Part shown: positions 4,165-9,886 of the stretch, piece by piece | How the letters are laid out: each line of letters opens with the position of its first letter | Position numbering within the stretch: the stretch's first letter is position 1 | Assembly (NCBI GenBank): GCA_963746775.1 | Contig: CAVVCK010000002.1 | Span: forward strand, 431,656 to 495,655 | Length of the DNA stretch: 64,000 nucleotides | From: an uncultured bacterium | GTDB taxonomy: Bacteria > Patescibacteriota > JABMPQ01 > CAVVCK01 | Direction of reading: 5' to 3' | Program-made: the position numbers and the translations under genes | The notes under the pieces: generated by a model | Told to the model about the DNA's origin: nothing | Databases searched by the model: none | Seen by the model: only the letters and a program-made list of their open reading frames with translations

Positions 4165-5304
4165 TTACTTTTTATCTTCAAGCACACTTAACACGCTCTT
4201 TGCACATTCTTCCCATCTAAACTCCTTCACTCTCCCTAATCCTTTATTAATCAACCTTTGTCGCAAATTTTTATCAACTATTCCATTATAAACACCCAAA
4301 GCCAAATCATCAATATTATAAGGATCAATCAACAAAGCTGCATCTTGACATACTTCCGGTAAAGAAGAAACAAAAGAAGTTACTACCGGCACTCCACAAG
4401 CCATCGCCTCTAGTGCCGGAAAACCAAAGCCTTCATAAAAACTAGGATAAACAAATAATTTGGTTAAATTATATAAATAAGGCTTATCTTCTTCTTCTAT
4501 AAATCCTGGAAAAATTATATCTTTTTTATATTTTGATTTTTCCCAATTTTCAAATATCTTTTTATAGCACCAAGCTTTCTCCCCCGCAATAACTAATTTA
4601 TTATTAATTTTATTCTGGTCTCTTAATTTTTCATAAGCAGATATAAGCCCTACAATATTTTTGCGCGGCTCTATTGATCCTAGTGATAAAATAAAATCTT
4701 TTGGTAAATTATATTTTTTTCTAATTTCTTCCAATTTATTGTCGTTATTACAAACCTTTAAATTCTCATTTATTCCAGAATATATTATCCTGATTTTTTC
4801 TTCCGAAATGCCATATGTTAAAACTAGGTCATCTTTAGTAGCTTCTGATACTGCAATAATGTAATCATTGTCTTTAGCTAATTTCTTGGGGTTTACCACT
4901 CTATGCCAGAGTCTTCTCTTTAATGAGTAGAAATGGGAATAATGAGAAAAGGCTAAATCATGGAAAGTAATAATGTTTTGGCAATTTTTATCTAATGAAT
5001 AAAAAGAAATATTTGGTGCAAAGAATATATCACAATCTAAGATTTTACTTATTTTGGGATAGTTAAATAAAACAAAAGACAAATTTAATAATTTATTAGG
5101 TATTTTTGTTTTTTTTATCTCTACATTAGGAAAATCAAAGGCCTTATCTATATCAAAGGAAGGACCCTTAAATGAATTAAAAAAAAGCTTATATTGATTT
5201 TCTTGATCAATTTTAAAAAGATTAGTTAGAAGATTCAGGGTATAACCCTCTACTCCTGTTCTTTTACCTTCAGATAACATGCGAATATCTATACCTATTT
5301 TCAT
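4165..5304 (-). CDS. Glycosyltransferase, GT4 family
   Basis: 379 aa. YPSFYEGFGFPALEAMACGVPVVTS motif. Confidence 0.85.
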   Translation of the reverse strand: MKIGIDIRMLSEGKRTGVEGYTLNLLTNLFKIDQENQYKLFFNSFKGPSFDIDKAFDFPNVEIKKTKIPNKLLNLSFVLFNYPKISKILDCDIFFAPNISFYSLDKNCQNIITFHDLAFSHYSHFYSLKRRLWHRVVNPKKLAKDNDYIIAVSEATKDDLVLTYGISEEKIRIIYSGINENLKVCNNDNKLEEIRKKYNLPKDFILSLGSIEPRKNIVGLISAYEKLRDQNKINNKLVIAGEKAWCYKKIFENWEKSKYKKDIIFPGFIEEEDKPYLYNLTKLFVYPSFYEGFGFPALEAMACGVPVVTSFVSSLPEVCQDAALLIDPYNIDDLALGVYNGIVDKNLRQRLINKGLGRVKEFRWEECAKSVLSVLEDKK

Positions 5305-5358
5305 TTATTTTTAGCTAATTTATCTTATTATATTAAATAAATATTTTATATTCAACAT

Positions 5359-5390
5359 AAATAGCCTAAATATGAATATTTAGGCTATTT
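5359..5390. terminator. 14-bp perfect stem-loop (AAATAGCCTAAATA tgaa TATTTAGGCTATTT)
   Basis: Read directly. It lies between the structured RNA region and the start of the GT4 gene. Its role (terminator versus spacer hairpin) is uncertain. Confidence 0.4.
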
Positions 5391-5414
5391 TAAACTATTT
5401 TTCACAAAAAAACC

Positions 5415-5443
5415 TTGACATTATTACTATTATGTGTTATCCT
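5415..5443 (+). promoter_or_regulatory. Sigma70-like promoter TTGACA-N17-TATCCT with TGn extended -10
   Basis: TTGACA at 5415-5420, TG at 5435-5436, TATCCT at 5438-5443. It points into the GC-rich structured region. Confidence 0.5.
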
Positions 5444-5449
5444 TTATTG

Positions 5450-6022
5450 TTTGTTCATTTACAAAATTTCCTTTTCTCTTTATAGCCCTAAAATTTAAGG
5501 CTTTAATGAGGAAAGGAGGTAGCATGAGTAGCTACCCGAGTGGGTTTGTCTAACAATAGGCAAAAATGCGAACCAGACCAAGATTCGACGGGGCGTCGAG
5601 GTCTGGTTGAACTTATTTTCCCCGTTAAACCTCTAACTGACAGAAGAAAGGAGGTTAACCCTGATTAAATCAGATTATGGCATGACGGCTTGCCATTTTC
5701 TGAAGAGCAAGAATAACCGTCAAACCCCCTGCATATTAAGGAGGTAAAATGCAGGTACACAAACGCTGGTTAGCAATGCTAACTAGCGCGATCTGAGAAA
5801 ACGCCACTCAGATCGTACAGAGGCGGTTCCCTGGGAGTTACCGCCGGGCGAAAAACTCCCAAACGGCCACGCTCAAGGCCACACCGAGACAGGCGATCTC
5901 GGCATTGAGCACAGGGGGCAAGCACCACATCGATCTTTTGCTTCGCCCCCACCCTTTTCAGAAAATATAATTAAATTGTATTTTGTGAAAATTAAAAAAT
6001 CACGCCTTAGGCGTGATTTTTT
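5450..6022 (+). ncRNA. Unclassified large structured RNA (about 570 nt). Strand is assigned from the promoter/terminator pair and is not certain.
   Basis: 210 of 420 nt are G+C in 5521-5940, against 18-30% in flanking lines. More than 10 directly readable helices, two pseudoknot-type pairings and three AAGGAGGU boxes. No credible ORF. See findings. Confidence 0.6.
5994..6022. terminator. Intrinsic terminator, A6-ATCACGCC-tta-GGCGTGAT-T6 (bidirectional geometry)
   Basis: GC-rich 8-bp stem flanked by an A-run and a T-run. Confidence 0.75.
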
Positions 6023-6048
6023 ATTATCTATTATTTTATTCAAAGTAC

Positions 6049-6069
6049 AGACAGGTTTCAAACCTGTCT
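6049..6069 (-). terminator. Stem-loop AGACAGG tttcaaa CCTGTCT directly after the stop of the Wzz-like gene
   Basis: Read directly. A covarying paralogue lies at 9390-9410. Confidence 0.5.
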
Positions 6070-6073
6070 TACC

Positions 6074-6688
6074 TTATTCTTCTTCCTTCAAATATTCTCT
6101 AAAAAATGCCAACCCCAAACCAATAAATATACCACCCAATAAACCAAACGCACCTACCAAATAAGGGTTATATTTTTTTAAAGTAATAATGGGTTCATCC
6201 GCTTCTACAGAAAACGAACTGTTACCTTCAGCATTTATTTCTAGAGTTTCAACTTTTTTCTTAGTCTCCTCTACTAAGGCTTTAGATAATTTACCCACCA
6301 CATCTCTATTGCTATTATTTAACCTCACGTCTATTAAATGAGAAGATAATTGCTTTGTCTTAACTTTTTTAGCTTCTTGATAAGCATCGCTCATTTTATC
6401 TTCTAAACCTGCTTCTTTGTAAACTAGGATTATAACTTCTGGAGTCTCAAGCCAACCGGTAATAGTATTGCTTAAATATTCAGCTGCCTGAATTGAATAA
6501 TAATTATCATACTGAAAATCTTCTGTTTTTTCTCTTTCAACTCTATGAATAGTCATTAAGATTGAGGCGTCAAAGCTGTCTTTTTGTAAAAACCCTAAAA
6601 TTAAAGATAAAGCTCCACATAAAACCCCTATAATTATAATAAATTTAATTTTTTCTTTTAGCACTTTAAAATAATCCTTTAAGTTCAT
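6074..6688 (-). CDS. Wzz/polysaccharide co-polymerase-like chain-length determinant (short form)
   Basis: 204 aa. N-terminal TM (FIIIIGVLCGALSLILGFL) and C-terminal TM (LVGAFGLLGGIFIGLGLAFF) flank a soluble domain, which is the PCP topology. Lies in the glycan cluster. Confidence 0.65.
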   Translation of the reverse strand: MNLKDYFKVLKEKIKFIIIIGVLCGALSLILGFLQKDSFDASILMTIHRVEREKTEDFQYDNYYSIQAAEYLSNTITGWLETPEVIILVYKEAGLEDKMSDAYQEAKKVKTKQLSSHLIDVRLNNSNRDVVGKLSKALVEETKKKVETLEINAEGNSSFSVEADEPIITLKKYNPYLVGAFGLLGGIFIGLGLAFFREYLKEEE

Positions 6689-6785
6689 AAGTTTATGTTG
6701 TTTAAATATTGTTAATTATAAATTTAGACATTGGACATTTATTCGCCATTCAGATTCCTTAATTCTTAATTTTTAACAAATTACA

Positions 6786-7904
6786 CTAACTATATGTGCT
6801 TCTAATTTTCTCTTGGTATTTACTATACTCTTCTTCCACATAATTCTTAATCTTTTCTTTAAATAATTCAATATCATATTGCTTGGCATGTTCTCTAATC
6901 GCTTCTGGATCATATTTTTCCGCATCAAATTCTCTAATCTTATCAACTAATTTCCAAGGAGTTTGTTCGTCAAAAAATTCTCCTGTTATCCCTTCTTTAA
7001 TAGTCTCCCTGGCTCCGCCTTTGCGTAAAGCTATAACCGGCCTGCCCGATGCCATAGCTTCTACGGCCGATATGCCAAAGTCTTCTTCCTGAGGATATAT
7101 CAAAGCTCGGCAAGATGATAAATATTTGCTTTTTTCCTCATCACTTAATGGTCCTAGAAATTCTATATTTTTCTTGGCTTTTTTCTTTAAATTGTCATAC
7201 TCTTCTCCCGTACCAATTATTTTTAAAGGATATTCTAAGGCGTTAAAAGCTTCGACAGCCAAATCAACACGCTTATATGGCCTAAGCCTGGATACAATTA
7301 AAAAGTAATCCCCCACACTTTTAGAAACATAAAATTTATCCGTTTCAACTGGAGGATAAATAATATCACTTTCTTTCCCATAATATTTTTTAATTCTATG
7401 AGCTACAGTTTTGGAATTAGCAATATATTTGTCTACTCTATCAGCTGCCACCCTATCCCATTGCCTTATTCTATTTAAAACTAAAGGGAGCATTCTTTTA
7501 ATAACTGCCGGCTGTTTTAGTTCTTCTGTATAGCTATGCGTATCATTCCATAAATACCTAGTTGGTGAATGGCAATAACTAATATGTAGCGTATCCGGCT
7601 GTACAATCACGCCCTTCGAATAAGCTGAGCTATCAGATAAAACCACATCATAGCCTGATAGATCTAATCTTTCGATTGCAGCTGGCATTAAACTTAAATA
7701 CCATTTATATTGGCCGGATCCTCCGGGTAATTTTTGAATAAAGGAAGTTCTAATATCCATATCTTCAAAAAGCCCCCTAGTCTCTTTCTTGTCATAAGTT
7801 AGAGTATAGACTGGGGCCTTAGGATATAGCTCGTGGAATATTTCTAAAACTTTTTCTGCTCCACCAACTTGGTTTAGAAAATCATGTACTAAGGCAACCT
7901 TCAT
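6786..7904 (-). CDS. Glycosyltransferase, GT4 family
   Basis: 372 aa. PQEEDFGISAVEAMASGRPVIA motif. Confidence 0.85.
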   Translation of the reverse strand: MKVALVHDFLNQVGGAEKVLEIFHELYPKAPVYTLTYDKKETRGLFEDMDIRTSFIQKLPGGSGQYKWYLSLMPAAIERLDLSGYDVVLSDSSAYSKGVIVQPDTLHISYCHSPTRYLWNDTHSYTEELKQPAVIKRMLPLVLNRIRQWDRVAADRVDKYIANSKTVAHRIKKYYGKESDIIYPPVETDKFYVSKSVGDYFLIVSRLRPYKRVDLAVEAFNALEYPLKIIGTGEEYDNLKKKAKKNIEFLGPLSDEEKSKYLSSCRALIYPQEEDFGISAVEAMASGRPVIALRKGGARETIKEGITGEFFDEQTPWKLVDKIREFDAEKYDPEAIREHAKQYDIELFKEKIKNYVEEEYSKYQEKIRSTYS

Positions 7905-7973
7905 AGGTTAGATATTAGTTAGTAGTTAGTGGTGATTAGTAGATTCTACTCATCACAAACTACTCACTACAAA

Positions 7974-9353
7974 CTAATACGCTGCCCTCCCTATTATCAC
8001 AATCACCAACGTTCTAAAAAATATTTGTAAATCTAATTTTAGTGACCAATTTTCAATATAATAAGTATCTAGTTTTACTTCATCATCAAATTCTAACTCT
8101 GCTCCTCCGCTTACTTGGGCCATACCAGTCATACCAGGTTTAATAGCTAAAACTTTCTTATGCCATTTCTGGTATTGAGCTACTTCTTCTGGCTCATGAG
8201 GACGTGGTCCAACTAAACTCATTTCATTTCTTAATACATTAAAGAATTGTGGTAATTCGTCAATACGAGTTTTTCTTAAAATTCTACCCACTTTGGTAAT
8301 TCTAGGATCATCTTTCATTTTGAATAAAGGCCCTTTACGTTCACTGTATTTTAATAATTTCTTTTTCATTTTGTGGGCATTTTCAACCATGGAACGAAAT
8401 TTATACATCTGAAATTCATTTTTATTACCTACTCTCTTTAGTTTAACAAAAACAGATCCCTTAGAACCAAGCTTGATTACGATTGCTACAATTAGGAAAA
8501 GTGGTGAAAATATTATTATTCCAATTAATGAACCAATAATGTCTAGAGATCTTTTTAAAATTCTTCCCCAACCATCCAATGGTGTTCTTTTAAGCTCGAC
8601 TAAAGGAAATCCAGCTAGAGGCCTGACATCTATATTAGTTGCCTGAGTACCAAAAAAATCAGGAACGTACTTAAAGTCAATCTTTGCCTCATCAGCAAAA
8701 TCTTTTATTTCTAAAGTTTTACTTTTGGATATTTTAGAATCTGTCTGGATAATTTCATCAATTCCTTTACTTTTGCTTATTTTCCCTAAAGAGCCCATAA
8801 CTGAATCATTATACTCTTTGATATGTGCTACAACTATATAGCCTGATAAAGGTTTTTCGAAATTGCGAATTAAGTGTTTGCTAGCTGATCCATTGCCAAT
8901 CAATACTACTCTGTAAACACCAATTCCATATTTATATAATCTTCTTTTTATAACACGAATTATAGACCGACCAAAGATAACAAATATAATTGACAGCAAC
9001 CAAGTCACAATAATTAAAAATCTAGATGAAAAAAGTTCAGCTCTTAAAAATATATAAAAAGAAAAAATAGCTACACAAACAGTAACTCCTATAAAAGCAC
9101 CGTACAAATCATCAATAAATCTCCTTTTGGATATTTTATAAAATCCTAATATAGCAAATACAAGAAGACAAAAAGGTGCAGCAACTAATATTAGCAGTAA
9201 ATATTTTGATAAAGATAAATCAAATAATATTGGTCTGACTTCTGTAAAATAATTGGTAAAACGTAAAAAATAAGAAGCAAGAGCTGCTAATAGTATCATT
9301 AAAAAATCTAACGGTAAAAGCACAACTGTAAAAAATAATTCCGATTTTTTCAT
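7974..9353 (-). CDS. Polyprenyl-phosphate sugar phosphotransferase (WbaP/EpsB-type bacterial sugar transferase)
   Basis: 459 aa with N-terminal TM helices. C-terminal domain reads KRSLDIIGSLIGIIIFSPLFL...YKFRSM...GPLFKMKDDPRITKVGRILRKTRIDELPQFFNVLRNEMSLVGPRP. Confidence 0.9.
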   Translation of the reverse strand: MKKSELFFTVVLLPLDFLMILLAALASYFLRFTNYFTEVRPILFDLSLSKYLLLILVAAPFCLLVFAILGFYKISKRRFIDDLYGAFIGVTVCVAIFSFYIFLRAELFSSRFLIIVTWLLSIIFVIFGRSIIRVIKRRLYKYGIGVYRVVLIGNGSASKHLIRNFEKPLSGYIVVAHIKEYNDSVMGSLGKISKSKGIDEIIQTDSKISKSKTLEIKDFADEAKIDFKYVPDFFGTQATNIDVRPLAGFPLVELKRTPLDGWGRILKRSLDIIGSLIGIIIFSPLFLIVAIVIKLGSKGSVFVKLKRVGNKNEFQMYKFRSMVENAHKMKKKLLKYSERKGPLFKMKDDPRITKVGRILRKTRIDELPQFFNVLRNEMSLVGPRPHEPEEVAQYQKWHKKVLAIKPGMTGMAQVSGGAELEFDDEVKLDTYYIENWSLKLDLQIFFRTLVIVIIGRAAY

Positions 9354-9410: not shown

Positions 9411-9427
9411 CTTCATTATTAACTTTA

Positions 9428-9886
9428 AATAGGCAGGCTATAAGCCGAATTCTGTCTCATCCGCCATAGATTAACAGCGAAGGCGGATTGCCTTCATTGA
9501 AAACTACGGCGAATACTATGATCATCTATCTAGCCTTACTATTACTAGCAAGGTCATGCTTTTTATAAATTACACCAGATGGGGTTTACCCTATTATAAT
9601 GTTACCATTATAACCTGTGAGCTCTTACCTCACTCTTTTCACCATTGCCTGCCATAGCCTATAAAGGCGACGGCTGGCTGTATATGTCTCTGTGGCACTT
9701 TCCCTCACCCTATCTAGAAGATAGAGTGCAATTGCCGTTAGCAATCACCTTGTTTCAAAGTCCCAAGGATTAATAGAAAATCCTATGAGGTTTTTCTACT
9801 CTCGAATCCATAAGCTCTGAGGTGTTCGGACTTTCCTCCCCTTATTATTATATAAATAATAAGAAGCGATCATAAACCTGCCTACT
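9428..9886 (-). ncRNA. rnpB: RNase P RNA, bacterial type A
   Basis: The minus strand reads ...TAGGCAGG...GGGGAGGAAAGUCCGAACACC (CR-I), GGUGAAAAGAGUGAGGUAAGAGCUCACAG (CR-II/III region) and GACAGAAUUCGGCUUAUAGCCUGCCUA (CR-V plus the P1 3' strand). Confidence 0.9.

Follow-up and report, generated by a model that had tools for sequence, protein, structure and literature searches.

A GC-rich accessory RNA in a Patescibacteria glycan gene cluster may join a hairpin-gated micro-message to a pseudoknotted RNA domain

Within a surface-glycan gene cluster of an uncultured member of the Patescibacteriota (assembly GCA_963746775.1), a stretch of about 570 nucleotides (nt) stands out by its base composition, and the question arises whether it specifies a structured RNA, a message, or both. 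It lies at 5445-6025 on the + strand of the window, by which we mean the 64,000-nt stretch of contig CAVVCK010000002.1 (positions 431,656 to 495,655) analysed here. It is the most GC-rich stretch of these 64 kb: its G+C peak is 0.58, where the window as a whole has 0.314 and the runner-up island 0.46. From 5500 to 5999, G+C content is 0.43-0.53, compared with 0.19-0.30 in the flanks, and an earlier count of 50% G+C for 5521-5940 (210/420) was reproduced exactly. Based on comparison with related elements, we propose, at about even confidence, that this is a dual-function RNA carried on a small, foreign-looking accessory island, in which a hairpin-gated YPSGF micro-message is fused to a conserved pseudoknotted RNA domain.

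The original prediction, made from this DNA alone, described a discrete, heavily base-paired RNA on the + strand, and the sequence supports this. The minimum free energy (MFE) of the + strand, -222 kcal/mol, lies well below the -148 +/- 6 of dinucleotide shuffles (z = -12), none of 100 shuffles folding as well; the - strand gave z = -8.4. Consensus scans recovered both of the boundaries that had been proposed, namely a sigma-70-type promoter at 5415-5443 (TTGACA, 17 nt, TG-extended TATCCT; 10/12 matches, with the TG) and a strong intrinsic terminator at 5993-6023 (14-bp stem and T-run), which reads bidirectionally and opposes the convergent Wzz gene. The promoter, the terminator and the open reading frames (ORFs) all indicate the + orientation, as do the stronger fold of that strand and G.U pairs in the 5' hairpin H1 and in an AT-rich hairpin near the 3' end, which would be A.C mismatches on the other strand. 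From promoter to terminator the predicted transcript measures about 570 nt and runs opposite in strand to the surrounding glycan genes, all on the - strand (GT4, Wzz-like protein, GT4 and sugar transferase); the next gene after the terminator (6074-6688) is convergent.

Relatives were sought through homologs of the Wzz-like protein (75-81% identity; Parcubacteria metagenome-assembled genomes and metagenomes), and their contigs were then inspected. A related element was found just downstream of Wzz in two loci of other Parcubacteria, L002 and L007 (L007 being identical to L008), and both in the window and in L008 it sits between Wzz and the next GT4 gene. The site is empty in L003 and L012, where a short gap has its own terminator; it holds other genes in L004, L005, L013 and L014, and in L009-L011 Wzz is followed by long tandem repeats made of A and T only. 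The site is thus a variable one, at which the unit is an insert that some lineages have and others lack. It had been likened to the ornate RNAs of the ROOL/GOLLD/OLE class, a comparison that does not hold, as the element was found in three lineages only and is not broadly conserved. BLAST against the relatives aligns the ends of the element only. Common to the three elements are a promoter, a 5' hairpin with the 16-mer TAATGAGGAAAGGAGG (identical in 3/3), a mini-ORF led by a Shine-Dalgarno (SD) sequence, a pseudoknot, a minihelix followed by ACC, an AT-rich hairpin and a terminator. At the aligned position, both relatives, L002 and L007, have the promoter-like sequence TTGTAT...TAAAAT, and hairpins equivalent to the window terminator occur in both.

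The mini-ORFs carry the case for a message. Five SD-led ATG mini-ORFs of 8-12 codons occur in the three elements, with the ATG 4-8 nt downstream of GGAGG and a shared core, YPS(G/W)F. Mini-ORF1 of the window (5524-5553, +) reads ATG AGT AGC TAC CCG AGT GGG TTT GTC TAA, that is, MSSYPSGFV. The first mini-ORFs after the 5' hairpin in L002 and L007 encode MLYPSGFD and MLRRYPSWFEDI, and both relatives carry a second SD-led copy in the middle of the RNA (MFGYPSGFR and MQKYPSGFV, respectively). Within the five-codon core all five third positions vary, and the first and second positions are fixed save for a Ser codon-family switch (AGY/TCT, the latter UCU in the RNA) and one Gly-to-Trp change. For the core of the five mini-ORFs, the proportion of synonymous differences (pS) is 0.97 and that of nonsynonymous differences (pN) is 0.10, so that synonymous sites are saturated. 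The other two reading frames of the mini-ORFs are not conserved. A further ATG lies upstream within the invariant TAATGAGG of the 16-mer; because its frame relative to the mini-ORF differs in each element, as read from the sequences, the SD-proximal ATG defines the conserved frame. The core is followed by exactly one sense codon and TAA in four of the five mini-ORFs, and the N-terminal part is 1-3 codons long. Judged from the aligned codons, this pattern of variation is the signature of selection on the encoded peptide and not on the RNA alone, and we take such amino-acid-level selection to be demonstrated at that level. The original prediction had named conservation typical of a short translated ORF as grounds for doubting its non-coding reading. 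Such conservation was found in the mini-ORFs and weakens a purely non-coding reading; the 3' domain, described below, does evolve as non-coding sequence.

The mini-ORFs also bear on three SD-like boxes listed in the original prediction. The sequence AAGGAGGT occurs on the + strand at 5513, 5648 and 5738, and its sole other copy in the window is on the - strand, 34 kb away. A window-wide count of 4 against 2.2 expected is ordinary; three copies within 233 nt on one strand are not. Box 1 (5513-5520) is the SD of mini-ORF1, with the ATG 4 nt past GGAGG. No start codon goes with box 2, and neither L002 nor, as read from the sequence, L007 preserves it as an SD. Box 3 leads ORF3 (5749-5796, +; 15 codons, MQVHKRWLAMLTSAI), which matches the second mini-ORF of L007 in position and sequence, has lost the YPSGF frame, and probably arose by decay of a second YPSGF mini-ORF such as the relatives keep intact. 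Since synonymous changes preserve the YPSGF core of the mini-ORF behind box 1, and a decayed copy follows box 3, the AAGGAGGU boxes appear better explained as ribosome-binding sites than as decoys of the 16S tail.

The host, for its part, seems to start translation with hardly any use of SDs. Of 50 window ORFs of at least 150 codons, one had an SD-like motif no more than 20 nt from its start, in agreement with the earlier remark that protein genes of the window almost never carry one, and the leaders are A/T-only (e.g., those of the - strand starts at 5304, 6688, 7904 and 9353). In contrast to these SD-less host genes, the mini-ORFs of the island and the cargo genes of the relatives (see below) have strong or perfect SDs. 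A purely non-coding ornate RNA, in which the boxes would bind the 16S 3' tail or the 30S subunit or act as helix strands and the mini-ORFs would be incidental, would agree with a host that hardly uses SDs, and also with the strong fold, with the covariation of the pseudoknot and helices, and with a 3' domain that evolves as non-coding sequence. Furthermore, each box is engaged in structure, as box 1 pairs with UCCUUUUCUC and box 2 with ACCUCU in the MFE fold, and box 3 sits in a hairpin loop. We nevertheless regard this explanation as unlikely, because 3-nt periodicity, the Ser codon-family switch and in-frame ATG and stop codons at SD distance in five of five cases are unexpected under RNA-only constraint; L002 does not keep box 2 as an SD, Rfam holds no relative, and the distribution is very narrow. 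Sponges of the CsrB/RsmZ type typically hold 7-22 GGA motifs in hairpin loops, whereas the element has three AAGGAGG boxes, of which just one (box 3) occupies a loop and the other two form part of stems, and has no Rfam match.

The second component of the proposed RNA is its 3' domain. Between L002 and L007 this domain is 74% identical over about 335 nt, mismatches are distributed 35/34/37 by codon position, and indels measure 5, 5, 13, 1, 2, 2, 9, 11, 1, 3 and 2 nt. Because the mismatches are even over codon positions and the indels are mostly not multiples of three, the domain evolves as non-coding sequence. RNAalifold on L002 and L007 gave 67 pairs, of which none was broken, 4 were compensatory and 9 were one-sided. 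A manual three-way pair table, built with a hand-aligned script (MAFFT failed to register the L002 pseudoknot), has compensatory changes in 13 of 60 pairs and non-canonical combinations in 3 of 171 cells. At the level of these alignments, we count both the non-coding evolution and the covariation of the 3' domain as demonstrated.

At the heart of the domain is an H-type pseudoknot (5818-5860, +) comprising Sa (5818-5820/5830-5832), S1 (5822-5826/5841-5845), S2 (5833-5839/5854-5860) and the loop GGGCGAAAAAC (5846-5856). S1 reads GGCGG/CCGCC, GGTCG/CGGCC and GGACG/CGTCC in the three elements, and S2 reads GGGAGTT/AACTCCC, GGGTT/AACCC and GAGTGTT/AACTCTC; S1 and S2 hold three of the 13 compensatory pairs (two and one, respectively). 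Of the two pseudoknots proposed originally, the one at 5833-5839/5854-5860 is thus conserved with compensatory changes; the other, 5588-5593/5620-5625, is complementary but falls in a block without a homolog. The pseudoknot is followed by a 3' minihelix (5914-5953, +), formed by GGGGGCAAGCA...TGCTTCGCCCCC and then ACC, with G.U and compensatory changes among the elements, and by an AT-rich hairpin (5955-5991, +; TTTTCA.AAAATATAAT / ATTGTATTTT.TGAAAA), which is present in the fold, is conserved in L002 and has a basal helix rebuilt by three compensatory pairs in L007. The motifs GGCGAAAAAC, ACAGNGGCG and GGGGGCAAG...CCCCACC occur in 3/3 elements; elsewhere in the fetched loci there was only one chance match, to ACAGNGGCG (L051/L052), so that GGGGGCAAG...CCCCACC is confined to the three elements. 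Separately, the invariant loop sequence GGCGAA(A) (5846-5852) is complementary to UUCGCCC/UUUCGCC further 3' (5943-5949 in the window; also in L002 and L007). In the window this partner is the 3' strand of the minihelix, making the two helices mutually exclusive, and a conformational switch is possible from the sequences.

How the two components might work together is suggested by the 5' end. Hairpin H1 (5469-5517, +) has a 10-bp basal helix with one G.U pair and is in the MFE fold; its 3' arm is the invariant GAGGAAAGGA, which hides most of SD box 1, and hairpins of the same type occur in L002 and L007. Hairpin H2 (5518-5536, +; GGTAGC/GCTACC), seen in the MFE fold and by complementarity, holds the start codon of mini-ORF1 in its loop, whereas the Tyr-Pro codons are the pairing partner of the start codon region in L002 and L007. 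We envisage that the ~570-nt transcript would be made from its own sigma-70-type promoter to the intrinsic terminator, that H1 and H2 would bury the perfect SD and the start codon of the 9-codon MSSYPSGFV, and that ribosomes would translate it once the hairpins open. The selected part of the mini-ORF would be the pentapeptide core YPSGF. The second mid-RNA copy, present in relatives, would have decayed in the window to leave box 3 and a 15-codon ORF. The GC-rich non-coding 3' domain, with its GGCGAAAAAC-loop pseudoknot, minihelix, AT-rich hairpin and terminator, would then stabilise the short message, bind a partner, or both. A bacterial micropeptide RNA is a tentative further step that we hold at clearly less than even confidence. 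Its real products would be one or two copies of an 8-12-residue YPSGF peptide made from perfect, hairpin-gated SDs in a host that makes little other use of them, and the structured domain would have a second RNA-level role as stabiliser, partner-binding element or translation-driven switch.

The same 5' architecture is open to a different interpretation, in which the mini-ORF is a cis-acting sensor: the nascent peptide or its translation would stall or position the ribosome and remodel a functional downstream RNA, as leader and arrest peptides do, within a stand-alone RNA. Burial of the SD and start codon in hairpins in 3/3 elements would suit such a sensor, as would the placement of the core one sense codon ahead of TAA in 4/5 mini-ORFs with an N-terminal part of varying length, as expected if spacing from the peptidyl-transferase centre counts. 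Pairing of the mini-ORF1 codons GGG-TTT-G with 5721-5727, adjoining the box 3 hairpin, and the mutually exclusive partners of GGCGAA(A) also speak for it. Yet there is no downstream gene to regulate, only a strong terminator and then a convergent gene, and the next conserved structure lies at varying distances from the mini-ORF stop (about 32 nt in L002 versus about 50 nt in L007). In addition, two copies per RNA in the relatives suit dosage better than sensing, and YPSGF is no known arrest motif. We therefore consider a sensor ORF rather unlikely.

Several observations weigh against the dual-function RNA that we favour. It assumes, from the sequence, that a host poor in SDs uses them here. 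One intact YPSGF ORF is left in the window, and one relative's copy has Trp for Gly plus three extra codons. With three distinct elements and five mini-ORFs from related lineages, the statistics are thin. Base pairing of the Tyr-Pro with the Gly codons (a 4-bp hairpin, AYCC/GGNU), or of these codons with the start region, is also possible, so an RNA-level constraint superimposed on the mini-ORF conservation is likely. The mini-peptides are without an export signal, a literature search found no paper with 'YPSGF', and we know of no function for a free peptide of 8-12 residues with such a sequence. Lastly, local alignment against shuffled controls detected no homology to L002 or L007 for 5554-5726 and 5860-5913 (z about 0), about 40% of the window RNA, and many of its helices could be young palindromes and not selected structure. 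Homology to L007 is weak at 5726-5816 (z = 3.2), and 5810-5870 is homologous to both relatives (z = 3.2-3.9).

This lack of homology has to be set against the earlier list of helices, which is accurate as far as complementarity goes. Twelve of its 13 pairings (equal-length helices and pseudoknots) are fully complementary, with two G.U pairs and no mismatches, and the remaining one, 5914-5924/5939-5950, has arms of 11 and 12 nt with one bulged C and is in the MFE fold. Five of the pairings fall in 5554-5726 or 5860-5913, the long-range one by its 3' arm only. The first of these lineage-specific blocks (5554-5726, +) contains GC-rich hairpins at 5571-5608 and 5677-5696, both complementary and in the MFE fold, as well as the possible pseudoknot 5588-5593/5620-5625 and box 2 (5648-5655), which pairs with 5631-5635. 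The second block (5861-5913, +) includes 5884-5889/5897-5902, likewise complementary and in the MFE fold, and has no homology to L002 or L007. Between them lie the hairpin CCTGCAT/ATGCAGG (5728-5755, +; MFE fold), with box 3 (5738-5745) in its loop and an ATG in its 3' arm, and two near-perfect hairpins (5765-5787 and 5789-5815, +; complementarity, MFE fold). In L007 the same CTGCAT..SD..ATGCAG hairpin precedes MQKYPSGFV.

A GC-rich mobile island eroding between Wzz and GT4, whose cargo-less copy in the window is junk that folds by accident, would account for the 40% of the RNA without a homolog and its near-perfect palindromes, for the decayed second mini-ORF, for the present/absent polymorphism at the site, and for the absence from the window of the GC-rich cargo genes of the relatives. 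A 14-nt inverted repeat that flanks the unit (5396-5409/5981-5994; TATTTTTCACAAAA / TTTTGTGAAAATTA, 13/14 matching) also fits. This repeat encloses the whole transcription unit and is not obviously present in L002 or L007; it could be the terminal repeats of an insertion, or a coincidence in AT-rich sequence. Decay is hard to reconcile with purifying selection on mini-ORF1 at saturated synonymous sites, with an invariant 16-mer, with compensatory changes in the pseudoknot, minihelix and AT-rich hairpin despite interiors that have diverged past recognition, and with a promoter and terminators kept in 3/3 elements. A decaying remnant of foreign DNA is in our judgement very unlikely.

The cargo genes themselves were found in L002 and L008. 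In each, a GC-rich (55-64%) gene with a strong SD lies directly upstream of the RNA module in the same orientation, and both are followed by the same junction, GCACATTCC...hairpin...AATTCCCAGAATATATAAG; the window copy is an RNA module without a cargo gene. The L002 cargo (7425-8237, -) encodes a 270-aa DHH/DHHA1 phosphodiesterase-like protein with invariant DHH-type motifs and no Pfam match. Its AlphaFold2 model (pLDDT 88) matched PggH, NrnA and GdpP (pGpG/pApA phosphodiesterases) in Foldseek (E = 3e-8). The L008 cargo (1779-2852, -; the same in L007) is an HD-motif protein with invariant H..HD..H..D, for which the AlphaFold2 model (pLDDT 87) had no significant fold match in the PDB. Neither cargo protein had a Pfam match above the curated cut-off (weak, sub-threshold matches only for the HD-like one) or a significant match to PDB sequences, PADLOC or PHROG. 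Homologs of the DHH-like protein (P0017-P0024, L049-L055) occur in other contexts, as genes of 57-64% GC in candidate phyla radiation (CPR) genomes of 30-40% GC, and never with the RNA module. Similarly, a distant HD-like homolog in L056 is an ordinary operon gene in a 45% GC genome without the RNA module. In L055, tandem units at 4351-6822 each consist of a tRNA or tRNA-like piece, a promoter and a DHH-like gene, GC-rich in a genome of 30-35% GC. The first has tRNA-Thr(GGT) at 4351-4425 and the second an internally deleted tRNA-like copy at 5659-5710 (Rfam tRNA, 32 bits); they look like a small tRNA-associated mobile cassette. The glycan cluster is a hot spot for small accessory inserts. A 23S_rRNA_IVP (PF05635) gene was also observed just upstream of the Wzz-like gene in L003 (5586-5852), L009 (2541-2921), L010 (799-1179) and L011 (476-856).

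The tRNA pieces of L055 recall one more explanation, that the element is a tRNA- or tmRNA-like RNA with a short ORF, pseudoknots and a 3' minihelix ending in ACC, processed and possibly aminoacylated. Besides the tRNA and truncated tRNA-like copy of that related island, the minihelix GGGGGC-AAGCA/TGCTT-(C)GCCCCC plus ACC (ACC in 3/3 elements) resembles an acceptor/T-arm minihelix, and H-type pseudoknots lie upstream of it. We consider it extremely unlikely. ARAGORN was negative, and Rfam, even at E <= 10, gave no tRNA or tmRNA match in the element. The acceptor-like helix forms locally and not from the 5' and 3' ends, its loop of 9-14 nt lacks a T-loop consensus, and ACC is followed by C, T or G but never by A. 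Moreover, the ORFs use an SD 4-8 nt upstream and AUG, unlike the tag frame of tmRNA, which is entered at a resume codon. A lookalike of the tmRNA 5' region at 5581-5592 (GAUUCGACGGGG) was rejected, as it is not conserved in the relatives. What the element shares with tmRNA is a short ORF with a TAA stop, pseudoknots of the H type and, close to the 3' end, a GC-rich helix resembling an acceptor stem; it fails the ARAGORN and Rfam models.

Searches for known families and further copies agree with the earlier view that no family can be assigned. None of 4227 Rfam families matched even at E <= 10, among them ROOL, GOLLD, OLE, raiA, HEARO, 6S, SRP, riboswitches and ribozymes; with lax filters at that threshold, 5300-6150 gave only terminator-like chance matches far under gathering scores. 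At gathering thresholds, Rfam 15 over the whole window found RNase P only (9425-9885, - strand, in line with the earlier placement at 9428-9886), and the L002 and L007 elements had no match. ARAGORN found no tRNA or tmRNA in the window, L002 or L007. Distant blastn against phage and plasmid collections gave no match. The mini-ORF pattern had one out-of-frame chance match (Desulforamulus) among GTDB representative genomes, and IMG/VR viral contigs scanned with mini-ORF, 16-mer, minihelix and pseudoknot patterns gave chance matches only. The 5' hairpin pattern returned ten ordinary SD sites and no homolog from the JGI metagenome collection, which is weak evidence of absence, as the L002 contig was not returned. 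A second copy, which a REP- or MITE-type repeat would lead one to expect, does not occur within the 64-kb window. A literature search on CPR structured RNAs, Patescibacteria SDs or small ORFs found nothing relevant.

Regarding larger ORFs, the statement that no + strand ORF exceeds 15 codons is correct for ATG starts, the longest being exactly 15 codons (5749-5796), and not for GTG, with which a 42-codon ORF spans 5540-5668. Open frames reach up to 125 codons within the element, and none on either strand matched Pfam above threshold. One sub-threshold match was taken as chance: the - strand frame 5782-5970 to Glyco_transf_4 (E 0.08, 13 bits), although the neighbouring GT4 genes lie on the same strand. 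A protein-coding gene or pseudogene fragment is not supported, given the 35/34/37 mismatches, the indel lengths and the lack of a Pfam match above threshold. Upstream of the element, a perfect 15-bp AT-rich hairpin (5359-5390; AAATAGCCTAAATAT / ATATTTAGGCTATTT) lies between the GT4 start (5304) and the promoter and may insulate divergent transcription units.

By analogy, the element would work most like dual-function small RNAs (sRNAs) and mccA-type micro-genes, and it belongs to neither of these, nor to any Rfam family. Like S. aureus RNAIII/hld, E. coli SgrS/SgrT and B. subtilis SR1/SR1P, it would be a stand-alone transcript, structured, a few hundred nt long and bounded by a promoter and terminator of its own, in which a small ORF is combined with a non-coding part, although here both transcript and translation are read from sequence. 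The small ORF of such sRNAs is translated or under amino-acid-level selection, and it is selection that was found (pN/pS about 0.1). For the separate RNA-level activity of such sRNAs, for instance base-pairing or protein binding, the non-coding evolution and covarying helices of the 3' domain offer an indirect hint. It differs from them in ORF length (26-43 codons there, 8-12 here), in that the ORF can occur twice per RNA with the same pentapeptide core, and in being pseudoknotted, GC-rich and island-borne in a CPR bacterium, with no known base-pairing target and no sequence or Rfam relationship. With mccA, the 7-codon gene of the microcin C precursor, it shares a strong ribosome-binding site before an ORF of fewer than 10 codons, a short structured hairpin-ended transcript and an accessory mobile locus; unlike mccA, it encodes no C-terminal Asn, the window has no neighbouring MccB-like genes for maturation or export, and what is conserved is a YPSGF core inside the peptide, between variable flanks. 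The leader and arrest peptides of cat, cmlA and erm are alike in ORFs of 6-19 codons, a strong SD, a motif near the stop and hairpins that sequester the ribosome-binding site; attenuators regulate a gene downstream in cis, whereas here the terminators face a convergent gene. ROOL, GOLLD, OLE and raiA resemble the element in size class, in being GC-rich in an AT-rich genome, in their many helices, in an often mobile or accessory location and in having no known function. In contrast to these, the element has no covariance-model match at any threshold, its conservation is limited to the ends and one pseudoknot, its interior turns over completely between close relatives, and selected mini-ORFs lie inside it. 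As an analogy only, the L002 and L007 elements resemble Drosophila tarsal-less/pri in having several tiny ORFs (8-12 codons) with a shared core and variable flanks; they differ in being bacterial and SD-driven, with at most two copies, one intact in the window.

To our knowledge, functional ORFs below about 15 codons are almost never annotated, and we know of very few in bacteria beyond leader peptides and microcin C. Here, comparison reveals a clean codon-level signature for a 9-codon gene in what would otherwise pass for an ornate non-coding RNA, and screens of GC-rich intergenic regions for non-coding RNAs may be picking up hybrid coding/non-coding genes. As it sits in a Parcubacteria genome whose own genes lack SDs, the element is a natural experiment on whether ribosomes of this kind make use of strong SDs, and in what way. 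The small accessory islands, GC-rich in AT-rich CPR genomes and made up of an RNA module with or without a phosphoesterase-type cargo, appear to be an undescribed class. If the more tentative micropeptide RNA were to prove true, polycistronic micropeptide RNAs would have a counterpart among prokaryotes, and the element would represent a new family of accessory genes in the CPR.

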